Shown here: positions 1,040-38,400 of the stretch, in pieces | Numbering within the stretch: position 1 is the stretch's first letter | Layout: each line of letters starts with the position of its first letter | Origin: an uncultured Poribacteria bacterium | GTDB lineage: Bacteria > Poribacteria > WGA-4E > WGA-3G | DNA length: 64,000 bases | Direction of reading: 5' to 3' | Assembly (NCBI GenBank): GCA_951813565.1 | Contig: OX638351.1 | Location: forward strand, 1,280,001-1,344,000 | Translations under genes and position numbers: made by a program | Notes under the pieces: model-generated | Seen by the model: the letters and a program-made list of their open reading frames with translations, nothing else | The model's database searches: none | What the model was told of the DNA's origin: nothing

Positions 1040-4000
1040 CTAATTATCAAGTGAAAAACGTAGCACGCCCTGGCCATCCGTCCCGACATAGAGCGTGTTA
1101 TCATCAACAGCAAGACAGGTAACATGATGTGAGATTTTTGGCGTGACTTGCTGCCATGTGCCAATGTCCCTGTTAAATTGGTATATTTTCTGCTTAGATT
1201 CACCGTAAACCGTTGTGTCATTGACTGCTAATCTGTTCACAACGAGAGGTGTTCCTTCTGCATCAGTGAGTGTATGCCAGTCAGTGCCATTGCCTGACAA
1301 CACGACGCCTTTGTCGGTTGCCACATAGACAAAGTCTCCAGCGAAAACTATCGCTCTAAAACGGTCTACAGAAAATGGAAGATTGGCGGTGACATCGTTC
1401 CATGTGTTTCCCCCATCAACAGACTGCATGAGATGATCATCTTGTTTTCCGACGTAAACAGTATTTCCTGATACAGCAAGTTTAAAACCGATAGTTTCAG
1501 ACCAGTTGAGAGTAAAAAAAGAATTGTCATGACTATCACCTTCATCAAATATGCCTGTATCCAACCATTCAGAAAGACCAGGTTTCCATTTAAAGAGTTT
1601 GTGTATGTATTCCACATAGTACGTCTCCTCATTAAAAGCAAAACTACCAAGCATTGAAGTATAAAAACTTCCCATAATTGTTATTGGTCTTCTATGAGTA
1701 GTATTCATTTCATACAATTCTTCCATTGCTTTGTTTGGGTCATATACATTAAAGGCGGGTACTTTGGAAGCGTCAATGAGTCTATTATCTTTGGTAGATA
1801 AACGGTAAAACCGAGGTGTCCCAATTTTATCATCTCTCACATAGAGTTCCCCGTTAGATTCCGTCATACGCGTTAGATAACCTGTATCGCCAGGAATAGG
1901 TGTCCATGATTCTCCGCCATCAGTTGAACTGAGAAGTCCACTTGGCGTATGCGCGTAGAGGACACCGTTAACAGCAATCAATTCCTTAACATGTGTATTT
2001 ACGAATCCAGTATTGAATTGATGCCACGTTTTTCCGCCATCTGTGGTGCGGTAAATTCCGAATTTTCCAGATCTATAAAAAGTATTCTCATTTAACAATA
2101 CAGAAGCAAAAGCACTCCCCATATCGTTAGTATTGCCCAACGTTTTCCAAGTTTTACCTGTGTTCGTTGAATAGAAATGTTCCTTATCACTTACCACCAA
2201 CACCTGTTTTCCGGAGGCGGCAATATTGAGAAATATTCTAATGCTATGATTATAGGGTAATTCATTATCCTTCTCGCGCCGTGTAAATGTATTCAATAAT
2301 TTGCTCTTAGAAATGACTTTTTTCTCTATATTGTCCTGTGTCGGTGTTATAGGATCCCAGGAATCACCTTGATCGGTAGAACGGAATAGTGACCATCCTC
2401 CTAATGCTGTTTCCGTTGCTCTTCTTGTCAACCAAGAATCGAATCTCATTTTCGAAAAAATTCCAAATTTGAGTTTAGATTGACTCATATTTCTATTAGG
2501 TCTTGCGACATAGAGATTATCTTTTGAAGCTGCTAAAGTAAGTATAGGGTAAGTGTTATTTCTTCGATTTGTTTGATCGTAAAACAATTGTTCCCAAATA
2601 TCTCCATTGAGGCGATAGAGCCCTTTATAGGTGCCGACAAAGACGGTATTTTCAATTGCGGTGATTGCGCGAATTTTCCTGTCTTTTATACCTTCGGGCA
2701 ACGGTGTCCACGATTTACCCGCATTATCTGATCGGAATACTCCTTTTTCATAAGCAAGGTAGATTGTCATATCGCTTTGTCCACCTGGTATTTTATCCGT
2801 GATTACCATGCCAACAAGTTCACCTTTTATACATTCACAAAAAACTTTCCAAGTTTCACCTCCATCTGTAGAAGCAAAAATCTCTTTATCAACAGCGCGG
2901 TAGAGTATATTCTGCCACTCTGCCACGTGCCGGAATACATTCCTTGCTGTTAGTGCATCACGGATGGAATATTTGATGGTGTTTATGAGTTTCCACGACT
3001 GCCCATCATCTGTGAGTCTGTAGAGACCGTTTTTTGACGTTGCATACACGTCACCGTGGTTTGTTGTGAAGAGAGTACCAACTGCACCACCTTCTGGTCC
3101 TTTTACATCACTCCATTGCCGAAGCGGTTCTGATATTTCATCTTCTTCCACTTGTGCTGCAGCAAGCAGTGGTGTGTCCGACTCCTGTCCCGCACCGTTA
3201 CTTTTACTGGGGACATTTACACTGCCAATTTGTGCGCGCACCGCTGGTTTTGCTGGTGTGTCAATGACGAGTTGTGTATCTGTTATTTCAATTGTAGGTT
3301 CCGATTGTGCATTTAAGCTATACGGCTTCTGAAAATGATTTAAGTATTGCGTGCCAGCTCCCATCAGCAATAGGACTAAAACGGCAGCGGCTGCAGATAT
3401 TGCTAATGGTACCAGTGGTTTGTTTCCAGAGGGTGCCGCAGGATTAGAACGCGAAATTTCTTTCATGGTGTTTTCTGTTAATTGTGTAGGCAGTTGGAAA
3501 CTGCTAAGGTTTTCTTTAATCATGTTTTCCTCCTTTTTCAATCGGTTGCGTGCGCGATGAAGTCTACTGCGAACCGTGTTAGGAGATACACCCAAAAACT
3601 TGCCAATATCCTCACATGTCATTTCTGCGATGTAATACAGATTTACGATTGTGCGGTCACTCTCTTGCAGCTTGCTGAGTAGTTTCTGCACTATTGCTCG
3701 CCGTTTTTTGCTTACTGCTTCTTCACGTTGGCGTGTCATATACTCTGAATAATACACCTCCTCTAATTCAATGGGATCAGTTGCTTCTAACGACTGTAGA
3801 GCGAGTTTTTTCTTACGATGCCAATTCTTGCACTTATTGTTGGTAATGACATAGAGCCATCCTGCAAACTGACTGTGATGAGTAAGCGTCGCGAGCTTAT
3901 GATACGCTGTTAGAAAAGCGTCCTGTGCAATTTCTTGCGCAGTGTGAAAATCGCCAATTTTCTGCCATGCTAACGCGTGTATCTGTTTTTGGTATTTTTC

Positions 4001-4072
4001 CACAAGCGCAGTAAAAGCTTGTTGATCACCTTCTAAGGTTCGTTGGATCAGGTCAGCATCACTGTTTTTCAT
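1040..4072 (-). CDS. ECF sigma factor fused to TM helix and BNR/Asp-box beta-propeller (paralog 1)
   Basis: Sigma region 2 (AFTALVEKYQKQIHALAW..AQEIAQDAF..FAGWLYVI) and region 4 (EDIGKFLGVSPNTVRSRLHRAR); TM LAISAAAAVLVLLLMGA; many (S/T)xDxGxxW repeats; start moved to ATG 4072 after GAGG. Confidence 0.9.
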   Translation of the reverse strand: MKNSDADLIQRTLEGDQQAFTALVEKYQKQIHALAWQKIGDFHTAQEIAQDAFLTAYHKLATLTHHSQFAGWLYVITNNKCKNWHRKKKLALQSLEATDPIELEEVYYSEYMTRQREEAVSKKRRAIVQKLLSKLQESDRTIVNLYYIAEMTCEDIGKFLGVSPNTVRSRLHRARNRLKKEENMIKENLSSFQLPTQLTENTMKEISRSNPAAPSGNKPLVPLAISAAAAVLVLLLMGAGTQYLNHFQKPYSLNAQSEPTIEITDTQLVIDTPAKPAVRAQIGSVNVPSKSNGAGQESDTPLLAAAQVEEDEISEPLRQWSDVKGPEGGAVGTLFTTNHGDVYATSKNGLYRLTDDGQSWKLINTIKYSIRDALTARNVFRHVAEWQNILYRAVDKEIFASTDGGETWKVFCECIKGELVGMVITDKIPGGQSDMTIYLAYEKGVFRSDNAGKSWTPLPEGIKDRKIRAITAIENTVFVGTYKGLYRLNGDIWEQLFYDQTNRRNNTYPILTLAASKDNLYVARPNRNMSQSKLKFGIFSKMRFDSWLTRRATETALGGWSLFRSTDQGDSWDPITPTQDNIEKKVISKSKLLNTFTRREKDNELPYNHSIRIFLNIAASGKQVLVVSDKEHFYSTNTGKTWKTLGNTNDMGSAFASVLLNENTFYRSGKFGIYRTTDGGKTWHQFNTGFVNTHVKELIAVNGVLYAHTPSGLLSSTDGGESWTPIPGDTGYLTRMTESNGELYVRDDKIGTPRFYRLSTKDNRLIDASKVPAFNVYDPNKAMEELYEMNTTHRRPITIMGSFYTSMLGSFAFNEETYYVEYIHKLFKWKPGLSEWLDTGIFDEGDSHDNSFFTLNWSETIGFKLAVSGNTVYVGKQDDHLMQSVDGGNTWNDVTANLPFSVDRFRAIVFAGDFVYVATDKGVVLSGNGTDWHTLTDAEGTPLVVNRLAVNDTTVYGESKQKIYQFNRDIGTWQQVTPKISHHVTCLAVDDNTLYVGTDGQGVLRFSLDN

Positions 4073-4107
4073 CGCACACCTCAAAAACAAATTGATCTTT
4101 TAACATA

Positions 4108-22676: not shown

Positions 22677-22705
22677 TGCACCCGTTTTGTCGTCTCACGC
22701 GTCAC
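22677..22705 (+). promoter_or_regulatory. Putative ECF promoter TGCACC-N17-CGTCAC
   Basis: Shared with the upstream regions of paralogs 3 and 4. Confidence 0.65.
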
Positions 22706-22755: not shown

Positions 22756-25700
22756 ATGAAAAACGACGCTGAACTAATTCAACGTACGCTTGCAGGCGAT
22801 AATAACGCCTTCTCTGAATTAGTGAAAAAATATCGAAAGCAGGTTCACGCGCTCGCTTGGCGGAAGATAGGCGATTTTCACACCGCTGAAGATATTACGC
22901 AGGATACTTTCCTCAAAGCATACCAAAGACTTCACACCCTCAAAGAACCGCAACGGTTTGCTGGGTGGCTCTATGTTATTGCGACGCGCCGATGCCTCGC
23001 ATGGTTTCGAAAAAAGCGTCTGTGGCACCAAACATTGGAAAATATAGATACACCTGTGACAAGCAAAGATGCTTACTCACAACATGTTGCAGAGGAACAA
23101 GCAAAAACTACCGACAAGGCACAGCAGGAAGTCGTCAAAAAATTACTTGAGACGTTGAAGGAGAGTGATCGCACCGTCATCACACTTCACTATTTCGGTG
23201 AGATGACGTGTGAACAGATGAGCGAATTTTTAGGTGTATCCGCAAACACGATTAAAAGCCGACTTCGCCGTGCACGGAACCGCTTGAAAAAGGAGGAACC
23301 GATGATCCGAGAAGCAATTAGTAACTTTCAAATTTCACCTAACCTAACCGATAACATCATGCAAGAAATCAATCGTCTTAAACCCGCTGCGCCTTCTGCA
23401 AGTAAACCTTTGGTGCCATGGGTGATAGGCGCTGCAAGTACAGTTTTGATTGTGCTAATGCTTGGCATAAGCAGTCAGGACTTAGCGCGTTTCCAACGAC
23501 CTTATAGTTTAGATGCACAGTCTGAGATGGCAGTTGAACTTATTGACGCGCCTGTTGTACAGAGTGCTGATGCAAGACAGGATGTGCGAAATCAACTGGG
23601 GGAACGTTCCGATACGGAGGGTAAAAATAATGGTGATGGAGAGAAAGCGAATCAGGTTTTAGGTGATGAAGGGGACTATACTCGGTGGAATTTACCTAAA
23701 GGTGCAAAACAGAGACTTGGAAAAGGGACTATAACCGATATGCAGCTGTCCCCTGATGGTACCCGTCTGGCTATTGTAAGCTCTACCGGCGTATGGCTTT
23801 ATGATATTGGCTTAGGTGCCGAAACTTCCTTACTTACAAGAGATACAGATTTAATAGGACTTGTCACGTTCTCGCCGGATGGCAAAAAACTTGTCAGTGT
23901 TGGAGGTGACAACATAATTCGGAGTTGGGATGTTGAGAGTGGAAAGCTGCTTTTGAAATTCAATAGTCTTGGCGATTCACTTTCCGCTTTGAAATTCTTA
24001 GCCGATGGAAAAACACTTACTGGTGTGAATAAGAATAGTACGGTCTGGTTCTGGAACATCGCGACCGGAGAACATTTAAAAACTTTCCATCCCGGAGCTT
24101 TAAAAAGAATTAAAATCAAAGGCATCCCTTGGACGCGTGCGTTAGATGTCTTTGTTGACCCCACTGGCGTAGTCAAATATGCTATTGGAAACGAGGATGG
24201 CACAATTAGCATGCAAGATGGACGTAGCATACAAGATGGAGGGACCAGTCAAGAAATACAAACGCTTGTAGCTCGTACAAATGACGCAGCGTTCATCAAG
24301 GATGCCAGAATACCGCCGGATCCAGAAGAGACAGATGGCAAAGAGCCATTTCTCACAAACTATAGGAATGATGGAACGCCTTTTCCTATACAATACAATC
24401 TGCAAGAATACTCTCCATCACGATTGCAAAAACAACCTGTGAAATGGGTGCACGAACTGAAATTTTCACCGGATGGCAAAATGCTTGTGAGTAAGAGCCG
24501 TTATGGGATTCCAATATCAGGAGGATGGGGAGGTATTGCAGGTCCTACTGAAATTTGGAATGTTGATACCGGCGAACAACTGGCAGCACTCCCTGAGTAT
24601 GTAGACGTAAGGTTTTCAGGTGATAGCAAAACCCTCGCGCTTATATCACGGAATACTTTCACAAGGGGAAGCTGCGCGGTATGGGATATTGTTAATAAAC
24701 GTCAAATTGCTGAGTTTCAATCTACATCGGACGTAAAATTTTCAGGTAATGGCAAAAACCTTGCGATAAGAAAAGGCGGAAGTTATACGATATGGGATAT
24801 TGTCACCCAACGTGAAATTGCCTCTCTTATTCTGGATGAAGATTTATTTGTAGTTTTGCCAAGAAACCATCTATTTTCTCAAGATGGGACAATTCTTGTT
24901 AACCATCTATTTTCTCAAGATGGGACAATTCTTGTTACTGAGAATCAAATTGGCACAGTAGATGTGTGGGAAATAAAAAAGGATACACAACCGCGGACCC
25001 TTGCTAAAGACTATGCAAAGGAGATCACGACGTTGGCGTTTACTCATGATGGCAAAACGTTAGCAAGCGGAAGTGATGGTAATATCCAACTCTGGGATAC
25101 AGACAGCGGCGACAAACTGACCGCAATTAGTACGGGAAAAAACAACATTGACGGTTTAACCTTTGCCAGCGATAATAATATCTTAAATGCTGTAGGACTC
25201 ACTTCCACTGTTCAGTGGGATGTCACTACTGGAACCAGGATTAGTGCTAACACTGTTCCTATGAACTTGGCTCGCGCTCAGGGCCTCGCAGTTTCTTGGA
25301 GCGATGGAAAAACACATACATTCCCAATATATGTATATTCTCCAAATTTCAGAACATTGGCTACTAAAAATGAGAATAACAATAATAACAATAAGATTGA
25401 GTTGTGGAATGTTACCAGCCGCGAACATTTATGTAGTCTCACAGAAAAGGCGTATCAATCGGCTAAGGGAGCTATGGCACTAACCCATGATGGAAGTATG
25501 CTCGCAACCGATAACCGATCAGGTAAAGTGTTCTTGTGGGACACACACGCCGACAAACAAATTGCCACGTTCAATACACCTGAAAATTTGATAAAAAAAG
25601 TGTTAGGGGTCCTGAAAAACCGGACGTTGACGTTGGAAAGTCACGATATTTATTCTATGACGTTTGATCACAATGGAAAAAACTTGGCAATTGGAATTAG

Positions 25701-25998
25701 AGATAGAGAGATCCAATTGTGGGACGTTGCTGCCAAAAAACGTGTTAGAACTTTCAAAGCACCACATAAATTTGCAATCTGCAAATTGGCATTTTCGTCA
25801 GATGGTATACTTCTCGCGAGTGGAGATATAGGGGGTAAAATTCACTTATGGGAGTCTACCACTGGTGCACATCTTACTTCTTATGAAGGACATAAAGGTA
25901 ATATCAGTGCCTTAGTGTTTTCCAAAGATAGGAAATTACTTGCGAGCACAAGCAGCCTTGATGGCACCGTCCTTCTTTGGAATGTGCCATCTAAATAG
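22756..25998 (+). CDS. ECF sigma factor-TM-WD40 fusion (paralog 2)
   Basis: Sigma2/sigma4 motifs; TM WVIGAASTVLIVLMLGI; many FSPDG..LAS..DG.I.LWD repeats. Confidence 0.92.
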   Translation: MKNDAELIQRTLAGDNNAFSELVKKYRKQVHALAWRKIGDFHTAEDITQDTFLKAYQRLHTLKEPQRFAGWLYVIATRRCLAWFRKKRLWHQTLENIDTPVTSKDAYSQHVAEEQAKTTDKAQQEVVKKLLETLKESDRTVITLHYFGEMTCEQMSEFLGVSANTIKSRLRRARNRLKKEEPMIREAISNFQISPNLTDNIMQEINRLKPAAPSASKPLVPWVIGAASTVLIVLMLGISSQDLARFQRPYSLDAQSEMAVELIDAPVVQSADARQDVRNQLGERSDTEGKNNGDGEKANQVLGDEGDYTRWNLPKGAKQRLGKGTITDMQLSPDGTRLAIVSSTGVWLYDIGLGAETSLLTRDTDLIGLVTFSPDGKKLVSVGGDNIIRSWDVESGKLLLKFNSLGDSLSALKFLADGKTLTGVNKNSTVWFWNIATGEHLKTFHPGALKRIKIKGIPWTRALDVFVDPTGVVKYAIGNEDGTISMQDGRSIQDGGTSQEIQTLVARTNDAAFIKDARIPPDPEETDGKEPFLTNYRNDGTPFPIQYNLQEYSPSRLQKQPVKWVHELKFSPDGKMLVSKSRYGIPISGGWGGIAGPTEIWNVDTGEQLAALPEYVDVRFSGDSKTLALISRNTFTRGSCAVWDIVNKRQIAEFQSTSDVKFSGNGKNLAIRKGGSYTIWDIVTQREIASLILDEDLFVVLPRNHLFSQDGTILVNHLFSQDGTILVTENQIGTVDVWEIKKDTQPRTLAKDYAKEITTLAFTHDGKTLASGSDGNIQLWDTDSGDKLTAISTGKNNIDGLTFASDNNILNAVGLTSTVQWDVTTGTRISANTVPMNLARAQGLAVSWSDGKTHTFPIYVYSPNFRTLATKNENNNNNNKIELWNVTSREHLCSLTEKAYQSAKGAMALTHDGSMLATDNRSGKVFLWDTHADKQIATFNTPENLIKKVLGVLKNRTLTLESHDIYSMTFDHNGKNLAIGIRDREIQLWDVAAKKRVRTFKAPHKFAICKLAFSSDGILLASGDIGGKIHLWESTTGAHLTSYEGHKGNISALVFSKDRKLLASTSSLDGTVLLWNVPSK
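24865..24936 (+). repeat. Perfect 36-bp in-frame tandem duplication (NHLFSQDGTILV x2)
   Basis: Read directly from the sequence. Confidence 0.95.
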
Positions 25999-26101
25999 GT
26001 GAAAGCAGCTGTCTTGCAAACCTATTGCGATTTCAATCGGGTAATTCCTTACGTCTCATAACCTTGATTCGAAAATCAAGGTTCACGGAATTACCTTTCC
26101 T

Positions 26102-26242
26102 TTTCCCTTCATTCGACATACTTTCCCACCACGGTTGCTTGCCTCCCGAATAAACCTCACATCTTGACAAACCCTCCTGATTTGGTAGAATAGTATTTCA
26201 CTGTTTCCAACCATCCAATTTATAAACATGCAGAATTATGCA
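26102..26242 (+). repeat. 141-bp promoter cassette, copy 1 (contains TTGACA-N16-TAGAAT with extended TG)
   Basis: Identical by eye to 29384-29524. Confidence 0.92.
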
Positions 26243-26268
26243 ACCGTTTTCCTCCTAAGTCGCGTCAC
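26239..26268 (+). promoter_or_regulatory. Putative ECF promoter TGCAAC-N18-CGTCAC
   Basis: Conserved motif upstream of the ECF fusions. Confidence 0.65.
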
Positions 26269-26315
26269 AAGGTTTCAATATGAAAAGTTGAACCTATCTT
26301 TTCTGGAGGCACCTG

Positions 26316-29246
26316 ATGAAAAACGACGATGTTGAACTAATCCAACAGGTTCTTGCTGGCGATGAGTCCGCTTTCGCTGAACTTGTGAAAAAATACCAAA
26401 AGCCAGTTCACGCGCTGGCTTGGCGAAAAATTGGGGATTTCCACATCGCTGAAGAGATTACACAGGACGCCTTTTTGCGAGCATATCAGAAATTGGGAAG
26501 TCTAAAAGATCCAAACCAGTTTTCTGGGTGGCTCTATGTGATTGCGACGCGCCGATGCTACGCTTGGCTCCGCAAAAAACGGATACGGACACAACCGTTG
26601 GAGGACACAGAGATAACGATGGGACAAAAAGATGCTTATTCCCGACATGTCGTAGAACAACGTGCTCAAACCGCTGTTGAAGCACAACGCGATGTAGTCA
26701 AACAACTGCTCGCGAAGTTAAAGGAGAGCGAACGCACGGTAATGGCGCTCCACTACCTCGGTGAAATGACAGTCGAAGAAATTAGCAAGTTCTTAGGGGT
26801 TTCTGCAGGAACAATTAAGAGCCGATTACAACGGGCGCGGCACCGTTTACAAAAGGAGGAAATAATGATTAGAGAAGCACTCGACCATTTTCAAATTTCA
26901 CCCAACCTAACCGATAACATTATGCGAGAAGTCGCACGACTTAAACCCGCTGCGCCTTCTGCAAGTAAACCTTTGGTGCCATGGGTAATTGCTGCTTCAA
27001 GTGCTATTTTGATTGTGTTAATGCTCGGTATAGGTAGTCGATACTTAGCGCTTTTTCAGAAACCTTATAGTTTGGATGCACAAGCTGAAAGAACAATCGA
27101 ACTCCTTGACGCACTTGTCGTTCAGAATCCTGAGGCAAAACCGGATGTCCGAAATCAACCGGGAAAACAGTCCGATATGGATGGTAGAAATAATGGAAAT
27201 GGCGAAAAATCGAATCAAGTTTTAGGTGATGAAGGGGACTATACTCGGTGGAATTTACCGGAAAGGGCGACAGCGCGTCTCAACAAAGGACGCATAGATG
27301 GCATAAGCTTTTCACCAGACGGAACTCAAATTGCAGTAGGTAGTGCTACTGGTGTTTGGATCTATGATGTTCGCACGGGTGATGAACTTGCCCTGCTTAC
27401 TGACCATACATCACGTACAGGGAAAGTGGTATTCTCTCCAGATGGTAGAACGTTGGCAACTGGATTGAATAGTAAAATCTTACTGTGGAATACAGCAACC
27501 GGAAAACTTTTAAAGACTTTTAAAATAATAGAGGATGGGTTGATAAAAGCACTAAGAATTATTGACGATGGCAAAACCCTTCGCTGTGACTATTACGACG
27601 GTTCAGTTCACTTATGGGATATTACTACTGGCGTAAAAAAGGATTTCCGTCCTGCACCCCCACGTGGATTAAGAGGAATACCGAGACGCATTAGGGGGCA
27701 TGAAGTTGCAGCCACAGACTTATACCTTAACAACGTTGGCAACAAAGGTATTTTTGCGGTCGGGGAAATAGATGGTAAAATTCGGTTGGATGATGCTATA
27801 ACCGGACGACATCTGAAAACACTTCAAGGCCACAAAGAACGTATTTCAAAGTTGATATTTTCACCAGATGGTACTCTTCTTGTTTCCGCTGATTATGATA
27901 ATGTTCCACCCCGTTTATGGGATGTAACCACCGGAAAAGTGCTGAAAACGTTAACTACAGATCTGGATATTTATAGGTTTATCCTGAATTTCTCTAAAGA
28001 TGGGAAAACCTTGGCTTGTTCGACGGTGTCGGCGAAGACGAGGTCTCGAAAAATTGAGTTATGGGATGTTGCGACTAAAACACTTCGTACCACTCTTTCG
28101 AAAACAAAGTTAGACTCTAAATTTGGTCAGTTGGCATTTTCACCCGATTCTAAGACGGTTGCGAGGGCGAACCGGAACGGTGAAATCCAAGTATGGGATG
28201 TTAACACCGGTGAAGAATTGTCTTCTTTTCGAACAAAGCATACGCATGGGTCTACAACGTTAGCGTTTTCATCAGATAGTAGAATCTTGGCAAGCGGACA
28301 GGGCAAAACAATAAGGTTATGGGATACGTTCAACTTTACAGAACTTTCTGACCGTATAGACATTGATACTGGTTTCACTACCATGGTCTTATCACCAAAT
28401 GGCAGAACATTGACTGGTGTAAGTGGTTTCACGCTTGAGATAAAAGGAGGGATTGATTCTGTCATCGAAAGTGTACGCGGCAGATTGAATGTGTGGGAAA
28501 CACTCACAGGGAACAAACTATCTGAAGTGCCAGTTGAATCTCACAAAGGAGATGTACCAGAACTTCCAGGGCAGAAATTTAGTTCATTCAGTTCTATTGG
28601 AATGTATGGTCCAACTGTTTTTTCTAAAAATGGTCACATGCTTGCGACTGTTATAAATAAAAATGGTCACCTGCTTCTGATTGATCAAAATTCACAATGG
28701 GCAACTGAGGACAACCGATTTACTGTCCACTTATGGGCTGTTCCCTATAAGAAGTCTCATGCCACTCTCAAGGGACATACAAAAAAAATTAACGTATTGG
28801 CATTCACCCCTAATGGAAAAATGATTGCAAGCGGAAGTGACGACGGAACAATTCGGTTGTGGGATACAAGTACTGGGACACAGATGTTAAGTATCCCCTC
28901 AAGAAAAACCAATTCCTTAGCATTTTCTGAGGATGGTAAAATTCTTGCGAGCAGCGATCCTGTTAATATTCAATTGTGGGATGTTGGTACCGGCAGACAA
29001 CTGAAATCTCTTAAAGCAAAAAACGATTCCGTGAACGTTTTGGCATTTTCCACTGATAGCAATATTCTTGCATGTGGTAACCGGGACGGGACAATTCGAT
29101 TGCGGGACCTTTCTACTGGGAACGAATTAACAACTTTCAAAGGACATGTTGATCGGATAAACGCCTTATCTTTTTCGCCAGATGGCAAAATGCTTGCCAG
29201 TGGTAGCGTTGATGGTGTCATATTCTTATGGAGCATCTCCGATTAA
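26316..29246 (+). CDS. ECF sigma factor-TM-WD40 fusion (paralog 3)
   Basis: Sigma2/sigma4, TM, canonical GH..WD repeats. Confidence 0.92.
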   Translation: MKNDDVELIQQVLAGDESAFAELVKKYQKPVHALAWRKIGDFHIAEEITQDAFLRAYQKLGSLKDPNQFSGWLYVIATRRCYAWLRKKRIRTQPLEDTEITMGQKDAYSRHVVEQRAQTAVEAQRDVVKQLLAKLKESERTVMALHYLGEMTVEEISKFLGVSAGTIKSRLQRARHRLQKEEIMIREALDHFQISPNLTDNIMREVARLKPAAPSASKPLVPWVIAASSAILIVLMLGIGSRYLALFQKPYSLDAQAERTIELLDALVVQNPEAKPDVRNQPGKQSDMDGRNNGNGEKSNQVLGDEGDYTRWNLPERATARLNKGRIDGISFSPDGTQIAVGSATGVWIYDVRTGDELALLTDHTSRTGKVVFSPDGRTLATGLNSKILLWNTATGKLLKTFKIIEDGLIKALRIIDDGKTLRCDYYDGSVHLWDITTGVKKDFRPAPPRGLRGIPRRIRGHEVAATDLYLNNVGNKGIFAVGEIDGKIRLDDAITGRHLKTLQGHKERISKLIFSPDGTLLVSADYDNVPPRLWDVTTGKVLKTLTTDLDIYRFILNFSKDGKTLACSTVSAKTRSRKIELWDVATKTLRTTLSKTKLDSKFGQLAFSPDSKTVARANRNGEIQVWDVNTGEELSSFRTKHTHGSTTLAFSSDSRILASGQGKTIRLWDTFNFTELSDRIDIDTGFTTMVLSPNGRTLTGVSGFTLEIKGGIDSVIESVRGRLNVWETLTGNKLSEVPVESHKGDVPELPGQKFSSFSSIGMYGPTVFSKNGHMLATVINKNGHLLLIDQNSQWATEDNRFTVHLWAVPYKKSHATLKGHTKKINVLAFTPNGKMIASGSDDGTIRLWDTSTGTQMLSIPSRKTNSLAFSEDGKILASSDPVNIQLWDVGTGRQLKSLKAKNDSVNVLAFSTDSNILACGNRDGTIRLRDLSTGNELTTFKGHVDRINALSFSPDGKMLASGSVDGVIFLWSISD

Positions 29247-29383
29247 GGAAACTACGATCCCTGTAATATTTCTCTTTTCTGATCGCGTGTTTGTTATTCT
29301 TAAGATGTTTTGAAAGTGTTTACAACTGATGGCAATCCTCGCGATCATAAATAGCGAAAACTGTCAATCAATTATTGCTTCCA

Positions 29384-29524
29384 TTTCCCTTCATTCGACA
29401 TACTTTCCCACCACGGTTGCTTGCCTCCCGAATAAACCTCACATCTTGACAAACCCTCCTGATTTGGTAGAATAGTATTTCACTGTTTCCAACCATCCAA
29501 TTTATAAACATGCAGAATTATGCA
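29384..29524 (+). repeat. 141-bp promoter cassette, copy 2
   Basis: Identical by eye to 26102-26242. Confidence 0.92.
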
Positions 29525-29550
29525 CCAGTTTTACCTTTTAGTCGCGTCAC
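29521..29550 (+). promoter_or_regulatory. Putative ECF promoter TGCACC-N18-CGTCAC
   Basis: Conserved motif upstream of the ECF fusions. Confidence 0.65.
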
Positions 29551-29573
29551 TATAGGACGATCGGAGGTGATAC

Positions 29574-32531
29574 ATGAAAAACGATGATGTTCAACTCATT
29601 CATCGTATTCTTGATGGTGATGATACCGCTTTCACCGAACTTGTGGAAAAATATCAAAAGTCTGTCCACGCGCTGGCTTGGCGAAAAATTGGGGATTTCC
29701 ACATCGCTGAAGAGATTACACAGGATACCTTTCTGAAAGCGTATCAGAACTTAAGCACACTCAAGAGACCGCAACGTTTCGCCAGTTGGTTATATGTGAT
29801 TGCATCACGACGCTGTCTTGCATGGCAACGTAAAAAGCGTATATTGACAAAGCCTTTGGAAGAAACAAGCAGCGCGCAGATTGAAAAAGAAACATATTCA
29901 CAATATGTTGTTAATGAAAATTCGCGGATCACCGCAGAAACACAACGCGATGTCGTTAAGAAGTTGCTTGCAAAATTACCAGAAAGTGAACGCACGATTA
30001 TCACATTACATTATTTCAGTGAGATGTCCAGTTCAGAAATTGGTGCATTTTTAGGTATATCAGCAAATACGATTAGAAGTCGTCTTCGCCGCGCACAGCA
30101 ACGTTTACAAAAGGAGGAAACAATGATTAGAGAAGCTCTCGACCATTTTCAAATTTCACCTAACTTAACCGATAACATCATGCAAGAAATCAATCGTCTT
30201 AAACCCGCTGCGCCTTCTGCAAGTAAACCTTTGGTGCCATGGGTAATTGCTGCTTCAAGTGCTATTTTGATTGTGTTGATGCTTGGTATAGGTAGTCGAT
30301 ACTTAGCGCTTTTTCAGAAACCTTATAGTTTAGATGCACAAGCTGAAACAACCGTTGAACTCGTTGATACCCATGTTGTGTTAAATGTTGACACGAAGCC
30401 AGATGTTCGGCGTGAGCTTGGGAGTTCAAATGTACTTGGTAAAAGCAATAACCGCGGAGAGAAACCGGATGAGGTATTACTGGCTGCAGCGCAGACAGAA
30501 GGAGAAGACATAGTTGCACCTAAACAGCAGTGGATTCAGGCTAAACCTATTAAGGGGAGTGGCGCGGGTAGTTTTTGGGCAACACCTGAAGGAGACCTCT
30601 ATACTGATGTTCATGGGAACTTCTTCAAATTGCCTGTTAACGAACAAGAGTGGCAACACATCTTTGGAATTTGGACATTGAATACCCGATGGAACAAGGG
30701 GGCACCTTTTGCAAAATGGAACAATTCCCTTTACATTATACCATCTAACGAACTTTTTGTTTCAAAAGATGATGGTCAGACTTGGGATTTGGTACACTCC
30801 TGGCCAAGTGAACATTCGCCGATTAAATTGATACCAACAGAGCAAGCGTTTTATGCCGCTTTTGAGAGCGGGAATATTTTCCGCTCCAAGGACGCTGGCA
30901 AGACATGGGAAGAATTAAACAATGGGATAATGGGGCATATTGGATCTTTGGTCAAAATCCAAAACACGTTGTTTGCTGGAACAGATACCGGATTCTATCG
31001 TCTCAATGCTGACAGCTGGGAACGTATAAAGTTTCCAGTACCTACAATTGGCGGAATTAAATCGGTTGCATCAACGGAAGAGAAACTTTATGTTGCGGCA
31101 GAGCTGAGTTGGGATGTGTTAAATACTACTAAAGTTGACGAAGGACAGCAGCGTGCTTGGTGGATATTTCGTTCAACGGATATCGGGGATTCGTGGCAGG
31201 ATATAACACCGACAAACGCTTGGCCTGTAAAAGGTTTTATGCCTTATATTAAACTTATTGCTGCCGGTGAAACACTCTTAGTTATGGAAAGAGGCATGGT
31301 GCGTTCTACTGATGGTGGAAATACATGGATGCCTCCACAATTAGCAGGCACATCACCTAATATGGATAGTTGGAGTTCTGCTGTGGTGGTGAACACAGAT
31401 ACTATTTATGTCAGTAGCGGGGACGGCCTTCATCGTTCCACTGATGGCGGCAAATCATGGGAAATAGTAAAAATTACTCCGGATGAGAGAGAGATTGATA
31501 ACCTAATAACGATCAAAAAAACTGATAGCGGTCAAAACATGTTTCCAACTCTCTATGGAAGTGTCGGAGAAGAGATAGTAAAAACAACCGACATGGGAAA
31601 GTCTTGGAAAACTATTCAAATAGAAATACCAATGAATGAACCCTACAGAGAAGACCCACCAAGGATTACTCATCTTTTTAAATCTGGTGGTGTTATTTAT
31701 GCTAAAGGTGGGAAAAATAACGGATTCTCCCAAGAATTGCGTTTATATCGTGTATCTACAAATAGCACTAAGTTGGTACGGATTCAAGGTATTCCTTATT
31801 TTGACACGGATACGTTGAAACGCCAATTGTCTCAAAATCTCTCTGTGGAAAAGTTGCAAGACAGTTCTGCTGGTGCAGCCCAGTTCTTCAAACAAGTGGT
31901 TACAGATCCTCAAATGCGAAATACACTTATCAGGTTAGGGTTTCATGGACCGTTTGCAGTCAGTGGTGACACGTTCTATATGGAATACAACTTTAAGCTC
32001 TTCCGATGGGAACCGGGTGATACTGAATGGTATGACACCGGACAGGAAGAAACTGTTTGGTTGTCTTGGAAAATGATAGAAAGAGAGCTCAAACTTGCTG
32101 TTTCAGGGGACACCGTCTACGTCGGAAAACGAGATGGACACCTCGTCGTATCGTTTGATCGGGGAACTAATTGGATTGATCTTACGCCAGCGCTGCCGTT
32201 TCCATTTAAAACTTTCAAAGAGATCGTATTTGCGGGTTCTACTGTATATGTAGCAACGGACGCAGGTATTCTTACATCAGATGATGGAAGGCATTGGCGT
32301 ACCGTCACTGATGCTGAGGGGACAAATCTCATCATGGAACACTTGGCTGTTGATGAAAATACGCTTTATGGTGTTACCAAAGACACAGGTATCTATCGCT
32401 TGGAAAGCGGCACTTGGGAACAGGTTGTTTCAGAAATTCCTGATAGCGTAACGTCTCTTGCTGTTGATGGAGACACGTTATACGTAGGCACAGAAGACAA
32501 CGGTATGCTTCATTTTAATCTTGAAAAATAA
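29574..32531 (+). CDS. ECF sigma factor-TM-BNR/Asp-box propeller fusion (paralog 4)
   Basis: Sigma2/sigma4, TM, SxDxGxTW repeats; C-terminal domain homologous to paralog 1. Confidence 0.92.
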   Translation: MKNDDVQLIHRILDGDDTAFTELVEKYQKSVHALAWRKIGDFHIAEEITQDTFLKAYQNLSTLKRPQRFASWLYVIASRRCLAWQRKKRILTKPLEETSSAQIEKETYSQYVVNENSRITAETQRDVVKKLLAKLPESERTIITLHYFSEMSSSEIGAFLGISANTIRSRLRRAQQRLQKEETMIREALDHFQISPNLTDNIMQEINRLKPAAPSASKPLVPWVIAASSAILIVLMLGIGSRYLALFQKPYSLDAQAETTVELVDTHVVLNVDTKPDVRRELGSSNVLGKSNNRGEKPDEVLLAAAQTEGEDIVAPKQQWIQAKPIKGSGAGSFWATPEGDLYTDVHGNFFKLPVNEQEWQHIFGIWTLNTRWNKGAPFAKWNNSLYIIPSNELFVSKDDGQTWDLVHSWPSEHSPIKLIPTEQAFYAAFESGNIFRSKDAGKTWEELNNGIMGHIGSLVKIQNTLFAGTDTGFYRLNADSWERIKFPVPTIGGIKSVASTEEKLYVAAELSWDVLNTTKVDEGQQRAWWIFRSTDIGDSWQDITPTNAWPVKGFMPYIKLIAAGETLLVMERGMVRSTDGGNTWMPPQLAGTSPNMDSWSSAVVVNTDTIYVSSGDGLHRSTDGGKSWEIVKITPDEREIDNLITIKKTDSGQNMFPTLYGSVGEEIVKTTDMGKSWKTIQIEIPMNEPYREDPPRITHLFKSGGVIYAKGGKNNGFSQELRLYRVSTNSTKLVRIQGIPYFDTDTLKRQLSQNLSVEKLQDSSAGAAQFFKQVVTDPQMRNTLIRLGFHGPFAVSGDTFYMEYNFKLFRWEPGDTEWYDTGQEETVWLSWKMIERELKLAVSGDTVYVGKRDGHLVVSFDRGTNWIDLTPALPFPFKTFKEIVFAGSTVYVATDAGILTSDDGRHWRTVTDAEGTNLIMEHLAVDENTLYGVTKDTGIYRLESGTWEQVVSEIPDSVTSLAVDGDTLYVGTEDNGMLHFNLEK

Positions 32532-37526: not shown

Positions 37527-37623
37527 AATGGACGGTCATTTTGATTCGTCCGCGAAGGGTTTCTGCTGTATATCCAAGAAAGACTTGCGGAGACTCTCTA
37601 ATTTATATAAATAAGGAGGAAAA

Positions 37624-38400
37624 ATGAAAACTCTATTTGTAATGTTAACAATTATAACGTTTGTGGCTTCTTTTGCCCACGCGTTGAGTGAACCAGAGGA
37701 ATCGCTTATCCTTTACATGTCTTTTGATACGATTGATGGTAAAAACACAATTGATCATTCAAAGTATGAAAACCATGGTGAAATGATGGGTAATCCAAAA
37801 CATGTTGAGGGTAAATTCGGTAAAGCGCTCGAACTGAACGGTTCAAGTGACTGGGTTGTTGTGCCACATGATGATATTCTCACCGTTGATGAGGATTTTA
37901 CCGTTATGGCTTGGATTAATACTGAGAGACATATGGGACCTAATGCCCAACGTTGGCAAGGAATTGTTGCAAAGGGCAATGCCCCTCGTTCTTATAGTTT
38001 CTATACTGAATCCCCGAGTGAATGTATGCACCTCAGTGTTAACGGTGGCGGAAGCGTTTGTCAAGAAGGGAAAGTCGCGTTAAATGAGTGGCAGCATGTT
38101 GTTGCGCAGTCGGATAATGGAACACACCGGTATTGGATTAACGGCAAAAACGTTGGTGAATACGGAGGAAAACCGAAGCCTCCCGGCAAAGCTGATACCG
38201 CAAATGTCCTTATCGGGAGAACACATGAAGGAAATCGCGAGCTCCTCGGTCTGATTGACGAGGTCCGCATCTGGAACCGTGCGCTTACAGAAGAAGAAGT
38301 TATTGAACAGATGGAGAAAGGACATTTTGAGCTTTTTCCTGTTGATCCACGTCAAAAATTGACAACGACGTGGGGAACTATTAAAACTCAAAAACGATAA
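37624..38400 (+). CDS. Secreted LamG-like protein 2
   Basis: Paralog; tail PVDPRQKLTTTWGTIK. Confidence 0.9.
   Translation: MKTLFVMLTIITFVASFAHALSEPEESLILYMSFDTIDGKNTIDHSKYENHGEMMGNPKHVEGKFGKALELNGSSDWVVVPHDDILTVDEDFTVMAWINTERHMGPNAQRWQGIVAKGNAPRSYSFYTESPSECMHLSVNGGGSVCQEGKVALNEWQHVVAQSDNGTHRYWINGKNVGEYGGKPKPPGKADTANVLIGRTHEGNRELLGLIDEVRIWNRALTEEEVIEQMEKGHFELFPVDPRQKLTTTWGTIKTQKR

Follow-up and report, generated by a model that had tools for sequence, protein, structure and literature searches.

A Probable Internal Translation Start in Sigma-Sensor Fusion Genes

An in-frame internal translation-start signal, a Shine-Dalgarno (SD) sequence followed by an ATG, was found just past sigma region 4 in all of the four genes for extracytoplasmic function (ECF) sigma factors fused to a transmembrane (TM) segment and a propeller (genes A to D; Table 1) that are encoded in a 64,000-nucleotide stretch of the genome of an uncultured Poribacteria bacterium (GenBank assembly GCA_951813565.1, contig OX638351.1, positions 1,280,001 to 1,344,000; hereafter the window). 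Judging from the sequence comparisons described below, we regard the signal as real and evolutionarily maintained across a large family of sigma-sensor fusions, and very likely each gene gives two products, namely the full-length protein and a sigma-less form.

A sequence-only reading of the window had pointed out AAGGAGG-N5-ATG in the four genes, and the string was indeed present at every site when re-read. The codon counts agree with its remark that the Lys-Glu pair at the site is always spelled AAG GAG, although AAA and GAA are commoner (42–62 AAA vs. 13–17 AAG and 31–50 GAA vs. 12–20 GAG per gene in all four genes). The description of the four as sigma/propeller fusions stood with a refinement, as both sigma and propellers were found but the latter are of two types, WD40 in genes A and B and BNR/Vps10 in genes C and D. 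AAGGAGG-N4-8-ATG occurs five times in the window against 0.49 expected, a count reached in none of 100 shuffles; the fifth one, at 37613-37626, corresponds to the normal start of the open reading frame (ORF) 37624. The 16S tail of the organism carries the canonical anti-SD. The SD:anti-SD energy of the internal site is -10.9 kcal/mol in all four genes, compared with the same value at the main start of gene A and -9.3, -13.8, and -9.4 kcal/mol at those of genes B, C, and D, respectively. The start of gene D is most likely the ATG at 4072, rather than the TTG at 4090.

The sigma part was recognized by TIGR02937 above the cut-off in all four proteins and by PF04542 and PF08281 above the cut-off in three; for gene B, the latter two were not among the 25 matches listed. 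Regions 2 and 4 are joined via a short linker as in ECF (group 4) sigma factors, and the sigma factor, a single TM segment, and the extracytoplasmic domain lie in one frame, which is continuous in 437 homolog rows. The named relatives of the fusion family belong to Candidatus Poribacteria. A hidden stop, a frameshift, or an assembly error was rejected for the junctions at 26853 and 30111, which were spanned without differences by contigs from two and three public runs, respectively (one run may be the source sample); the bridging covered genes B and C, and the junction at 23290 was unbridged among the pieces listed. One public-run contig matches gene B on either side of 26950-27065 but carries approximately 25 differences within this stretch around the TM segment, as if it had been exchanged with a paralog. 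No RNA run was listed among the public runs containing these sequences. As the four genes are related paralogs, their four sites are not independent of each other, and it is the homolog tests that carry the claim.

The SD Sequence Accompanies the Start Codon Across Homologs

We sampled 473 distinct sigma genes from 347 loci, drawn from best matches and tandem arrays such that the clades of the window genes are over-represented. The SD energies of 346 close-family fusions aligned at Met184 were then compared with those of synonymous shuffles. The rows with ATG at the site (233) showed -9.0 vs. -4.3 kcal/mol in the shuffles and those with GTG (28) showed -10.6 vs. -4.7 kcal/mol, while the values for TTG (21 rows; -3.7 vs. 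-3.9 kcal/mol) and for non-start codons (64 rows; -4.2 vs. -4.0 kcal/mol) did not depart from the shuffles in this manner. The SD excess is thus present only alongside ATG or GTG, and SD-type codons track these start codons across the 346 homologs. Moreover, the SD is kept while the amino acids spelled by it change (KEE, QEE, REE, EEE, TEV, and KEM). Such retention of nucleotides while the protein changes, seen also in the sigma-FtsZ fusions described below, makes the strongest case that initiation is under selection.

Val at the site is encoded by GTG in 28 of the 31 cases, compared with 26% elsewhere. In one clade of 10, GTG is retained at this position, whereas six of the clade's 10 other Val columns are variable. 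On a tree of 341 rows (five with unrelated tails removed; junction columns excluded), the codons of Lys180 and Glu182 underwent 8 and 7 synonymous changes, respectively, and are among the four least variable of the 37 Lys/Glu/Gln columns. Synonymous divergence over codons 180–195 fell to 0.57–0.79 of the expectation in 126 disjoint pairs of start-bearing genes, like that at a true 5' start, and was 0.80–1.25 of the expectation for the same codons in 36 start-less pairs. The constraint reaches approximately 12 codons downstream of the internal ATG/GTG, as seen at real starts. RNA folding of the 40 bases around the internal site also dips, like that at a real start (-2.4 vs. -5.1 kcal/mol).

The signal is also rare outside the sigma fusions. 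Among 3,360 long ORFs scanned in the genome to which the window belongs (5.43 Mb in one contig), a strong in-frame internal SD with ATG was found at 18 sites, 15 of which reside in sigma fusions, and AAG GAG spells 296 of the 3,912 Lys-Glu pairs. ECF sigma fusions occur as dozens of paralogs per genome, and more than 1,000 matches were counted across 41 genomes of Poribacteria. In 23 of the 31 long sigma fusions of this genome, an SD of -7 kcal/mol or lower is accompanied by ATG/GTG within 40 codons from region 4; the remaining eight have no such combination near region 4. Among 36 representatives of further families and classes within the phylum (from 104 rows), 23 had an SD and a start within 15 codons from region 4, mostly at codon +6, compared with 3.3% of 1,341 control windows. 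Two Chloroflexia-type fusions with the same type of junction were detected among the 151 genomes searched. In these fusions (L408/L421 and L437), which come from one Chloroflexia genome and a relative, an SD and ATG lie at codon +6, suggesting that the design extends beyond Poribacteria. Altogether, the internal site looks selected at the nucleotide level.

Several results weigh against this interpretation. The start was lost in 81 of the 341 homologs (about a quarter). There are also 62 homologs with a start but a weak SD and eight with a strong SD but no start among the 341. When 34 loss clades were compared with their nearest start-bearing rows, the SD was weaker in 24, stronger in three, and tied in seven, but the count of 24 to three reuses sister rows and hence overstates the association. 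A strict independent-pairs test (17 pairs) was not significant (5.9 vs. 0.8 with a median p of 0.125; 7.2 vs. 1.0 with a p of 0.07). None of the 36 distant representatives was individually significant against its own synonymous shuffle, and the codon of Glu181, with 21 changes on the tree, showed nothing unusual. Finally, GTG is a single mutation away from ATG, and ATA, another one-step codon, is likewise kept (22 of 27 Ile), which weakens the argument from GTG. No effect of the sensor type on the loss of the start was apparent (BNR, 44 of 222; WD40, 11 of 57; counts based on approximate motif matching).

Possible Roles of the Sigma-Less Product

The best explanation overall, to which we assign about an even chance of being correct, is that the sigma-less form acts as a surplus anti-sigma factor and a spare receptor. 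The gene would have been born by the fusion of a coupled sigma/anti-sigma operon, with the start of the anti-sigma gene kept. In the full-length protein, two junction helices and the membrane tether may keep sigma inactive until regulated proteolysis, a step proposed from the analogy with IutY (see below), and the freed sigma would then use the upstream ECF-type promoter to transcribe its own gene. As a 1:1 fusion cannot give an excess of inhibitor, this excess would be regained through the internal start, with the short form either recapturing free sigma or competing for the ligand and the protease, and thereby setting the threshold and the shut-off. The SD-start coupling, the phylum-wide persistence, and the synonymous constraint all agree with the proposal of the sequence-only reading that each locus is a fused sigma/anti-sigma operon with a working internal start.

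The junction was examined for resemblance to anti-sigma factors. Sigma region 2 is bound in class I anti-sigma domains by helix 4 and in CnrY by the second helix, and a class I domain consists of a three-helix bundle and helix 4, spanning 50 amino acids or more before the TM segment (PMC7406223). The classical anti-sigma layout suggested earlier holds as far as short cytoplasmic helices, one TM segment, and an outer sensor are concerned, but the four-helix class I domain is absent: only two helices are predicted in the approximately 40 residues from Met184 to the TM segment. In an AlphaFold2 model of residues 1–245 of gene B (pLDDT 81.5), the second junction helix resembles anti-sigma helix 4, and sigma is closed as in CnrH-CnrY (root-mean-square deviation, rmsd, 3.3 over 150 residues) and SigW-RsiW (4.7 over 155 residues), compared with an rmsd of 22–29 to the polymerase-bound form. 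The closed sigma in the model may mirror its likeness to solved structures. The two helices and the closed sigma predicted by the model can be compared with the class II (CnrY-like) layout, in which a pair of helices wraps sigma2 and sigma4. The short helical cytoplasmic segment before the TM segment is shared with class II CnrY and helix 4 of class I domains (PMC7406223), unlike which the junction helices are fused to sigma.

A profile of the junction was searched against 1,498 ORFs, mostly from loci outside Poribacteria, and seven of the top 10 matches lie directly downstream of a free sigma gene; to the disadvantage of an anti-sigma origin, each of these matches is weak (E 0.14–8.4). The same profile gave no match among PDB sequences at E 10 and no anti-sigma family among 56 members in Pfam. 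A predicted complex between sigma (residues 1–181) and the junction peptide (residues 184–220) scored 0.19 against a mark of 0.32 and was not used as evidence, and mean-field covariation over 487 sequences (effective number, 162) was too noisy for placing the junction helices.

The main rival is that the short product is the partner's working copy, be it a surface propeller, an enzyme, or a GTPase, and is required in a larger amount, with the sigma-tagged copy as a minority reporter, so that the short form would have no control over sigma. We regard this account as possible but doubtful. In its favor, the internal SD and start also precede unrelated partners that lack junction helices, such as FtsZ-like proteins, redoxin, and peptidase M61, which counts against an anti-sigma role as the sole reason for keeping the start. 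The sigma-FtsZ fusions constitute a separate sigma clade with an unrelated junction, and SD with ATG/GTG was found in all of the 28 loci read (30 were fetched), the SD being spelled by different, varying amino acids. Averaged over 258 genes, the strength of the internal SD matches that of the main start (-9.2 vs. -8.2 kcal/mol). In a tandem array, a natural sigma-deleted copy (L190:13430-15886, + strand) still has the promoter-like motif, followed by a short, decayed leftover of region 4 and then by an intact ORF of 764 aa that begins at the internal GTG, although it is a single case in a draft genome. Against a working copy free of any inhibitory role, the start in the main family precedes the helices, whereas another conserved Met, located 19 codons downstream, lacks an SD. 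The junction helices are under purifying selection (dN/dS of 0.11), though this is also expected from a role in cis.

It is quite improbable that the ancestral operon left the SD and ATG behind as a relic without use, held by an amino-acid constraint on KEExM and slow drift. A fusion origin is itself likely, and the free sigma genes in other phyla often have the SD and start of the next gene inside or just past their last codons. Furthermore, a quarter of the homologs lost the site, and Glu before Pro is GAA in 87% of the cases genome-wide, a context that explains a part of the constraint on Glu182. Nevertheless, synonymous divergence (dS) is about 0.7 per pair, yet Lys180 is AAG in 94% of the start-bearing rows with the few changes on the tree given above, and the SD outlives amino-acid changes and decays where the start is gone. 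The relic alternative left open by the sequence-only reading is disfavored by synonymous sites that are constrained around the start while the rest of the gene diverged. The sigma half, with a dN/dS of 0.08 in region 2 and 0.05 in region 4 (118 pairs), is by this measure under purifying selection and not decaying.

Selection of the SD-like string as a ribosome pause for sigma folding before membrane targeting, or as a programmed frameshift freeing sigma at a nearby out-of-frame stop, is highly improbable. The site does sit at the boundary between domains, some 40 codons ahead of the TM segment, and in 224 of 232 rows the base after ATG is A, making an out-of-frame TGA. However, no start codon is required for a pause, yet the SD excess is confined to ATG/GTG and the constraint reaches about 12 codons further downstream; in 146 of the 232 rows, the +1 frame has already been closed 17 nt upstream. 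Programmed frameshifting was rejected, as no conserved slippery heptamer was found (the commonest one in 17 of 232 rows).

Promoter-Like Motifs Upstream of the Fusion Genes

An ECF-type promoter-like motif matched the window three times, once ahead of each of the three genes on the + strand (Table 1), against 0.41 expected; three matches were reached in one of 100 shuffles. Related words are enriched upstream of 335 homologs. The motif is likely autoregulatory. Genes B and C also have near-consensus sigma-70 promoter-like sites (11 of 12 positions, extended -10) upstream of their ECF-type motifs, at 26164-26191 and 29446-29473 (+ strand), which suggests that each of these genes has two promoters. 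An internal ECF-type promoter was rejected, as the motif occurs only upstream of the window genes and there is no equally deep synonymous dip within the sigma region, but an internal promoter of another type may be present.

Table 1. Positions of the fusion genes, internal start sites, predicted products, and associated features in the window.
Feature	Coordinates	Strand	Description
ECF-type promoter-like motif, gene A	22677..22704	+	TGCACC-N17-CGTCA
Gene A	22756..25998	+	ECF sigma (residues 22-177), junction helices, TM, WD40 propellers; 1080 aa
Gene A internal site	SD 23290-23296, ATG 23302-23304	+	Met183, KEEPM, in frame
Gene A predicted sigma-less product	23302-25998	+	898 aa
ECF-type promoter-like motif, gene B	26239..26267	+	
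Gene B	26316..29246	+	ECF sigma, junction helices, TM, WD40 propellers; 976 aa
Gene B internal site	SD 26853-26859, ATG 26865-26867	+	Met184, KEEIM, in frame
Gene B predicted sigma-less product	26865-29246	+	793 aa
Gene B, two predicted junction helices	26856..26939	+	Residues 181-191 and 198-208; AlphaFold2 model
Gene B, predicted TM helix	26985..27032	+	Residues 224-239; helix in model, hydropathy 2.36
ECF-type promoter-like motif, gene C	29521..29549	+	
Gene C	29574..32531	+	ECF sigma, junction helices, TM, BNR/Vps10-type propeller; 985 aa
Gene C internal site	SD 30111-30117, ATG 30123-30125	+	Met184, KEETM, in frame
Gene C predicted sigma-less product	30123-32531	+	802 aa
Gene D	1040..4072	-	ECF sigma, junction helices, TM, BNR/Vps10-type propeller; 1010 aa
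Gene D internal site	SD 3535-3529, ATG 3523-3521	-	Met184, KEENM, in frame
Gene D predicted sigma-less product	3523-1040	-	827 aa

Other Sigma Fusions and Broken Copies

One of the sigma-FtsZ fusions (L429:597-4901, + strand; G000:C1:3818096-3822400) is a single frame of 1435 codons that comprises an ECF sigma factor, an FtsZ-like GTPase with its C-terminal domain, and DNA polymerase III alpha (PHP, NTPase, finger, and HhH parts), with an internal SD and ATG before the FtsZ part. The same genome also has separate free ftsZ-like and dnaE-like genes, and frames of about this length recur in many genomes of the genus. A second sigma-FtsZ fusion (L430:3859-5094, + strand) ends after the GTPase domain (412 codons) and likewise bears an internal SD and ATG; copies of about its length are present in other genomes. 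In L392:3971-5191 (+ strand), sigma is fused to a tail opening with its own SD-like site and ATG. We take this tail to resemble the start of the DNA polymerase beta clamp, albeit no Pfam match was obtained at E 1e-8. Five more loci (L432, L433, L434, L435, and L436) carry soluble unrelated tails (redoxin, peptidase M61, and others without a Pfam match), each with an internal SD and ATG.

Six ORFs bear the junction but no whole sigma: one is the sigma deletion in L190, two have a single break in sigma (L049 and L386), and the remainder consist of post-stop fragments or other pieces. In L069 (G000:C1:2186674-2189592, - strand), an in-frame TAG just before the TM segment leaves sigma and the junction helices as a separate frame of 218 codons.

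Comparison With Known Systems

The group ECF243 is defined by a FecR-type periplasmic domain and a TonB-dependent receptor partner. The window proteins have WD40 or BNR/Vps10 outer domains instead; no FecR family was among the Pfam matches listed for them, and a TonB-dependent receptor partner was not searched for. IutY of Pseudomonas putida, which belongs to ECF243, is a sigma/anti-sigma hybrid released by Prc and RseP (PMC5411451; PMC8999054). Like IutY, the fusions described here combine a cytoplasmic ECF sigma factor, one TM segment, and an outer domain in one chain, but they differ from it in the propeller outside, the dozens of paralogs per genome, and the conserved internal start; the terms "start codon" and "translation" do not occur in the main text of the IutY paper (PMC5411451).

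ECF57 of Planctomycetes has a C-terminal extension with TM helices and, in some members, WD40 (PMC7826278; PMC8999054). The window proteins share this arrangement but come from a different phylum, and the sigma2/sigma4 cysteine pair reported as completely conserved in ECF57 (PMC7826278) is complete in only two of the four. Cys81 is invariant in 60 aligned rows, whereas the sigma4 position holds Cys in the proteins of genes A and D but Val in that of gene B and Ser in that of gene C. The passages on ECF57 in the two reviews name no internal start (PMC7826278; PMC8999054). Along with IutY, ECF48/52/53 and ECF57 count among the known sigma/anti-sigma fusions (PMC8999054; PMC7826278).

Internal starts within signaling genes have been described in Escherichia coli arcB, giving ArcB-C (bioRxiv 10.1101/520783), and in cheA, giving CheA-S (PMC13515050). 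As in these cases, we found a well-spaced SD with in-frame ATG/GTG at a domain boundary, conservation across species, and local synonymous constraint, and the predicted product is an N-terminally truncated signaling isoform. In contrast to arcB and cheA, which are single genes studied by experiment, the internal start here is predicted from sequence and found repeatedly, both throughout a large paralog family and at two or more unrelated junctions, and it would remove the whole sigma while the membrane part stays. Single-cell genomics of Poribacteria reported abundant WD40 domains, and the word "sigma" does not occur in that paper (PMC3909097). The combination of a sigma fusion with an internal start was not found in the literature searched, which lies mostly outside subscription journals, and a published mention is possible. 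Sigma/anti-sigma fusions and in-frame internal starts are each known already, but their combination appears new.

Implications for Poribacteria and ECF Signaling

With middling confidence, we propose that Poribacteria follow a "sigma-tagging" design, in which many unrelated genes carry an ECF sigma factor fused in frame ahead of them and the partner's own start is kept under selection. The partners comprise propeller sensors, FtsZ-like GTPases, a DnaE copy, and enzymes. If the proposal is correct, one mRNA would set a fixed ratio of the sigma-tethered and free copies of the partner, and tuning or losing the internal SD would tune each of the dozens of signaling units in a genome. Such a regulatory layer is absent from the passages of the ECF reviews cited here (PMC8999054; PMC7826278), and ECF sigma factors with fused extensions are currently treated as one-protein switches. 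Fused systems would regain, by simple means, the surplus inhibitor of the two-gene sigma/anti-sigma operons. The hundreds of genes with repeated losses constitute an unusually large natural series on the keeping and losing of internal starts. For the organisms themselves, dozens of genes per Poribacteria genome would be annotated with half of their products missing, and many of the abundant WD40/BNR "eukaryote-like" surface proteins of this major sponge symbiont could lack the sigma tag.

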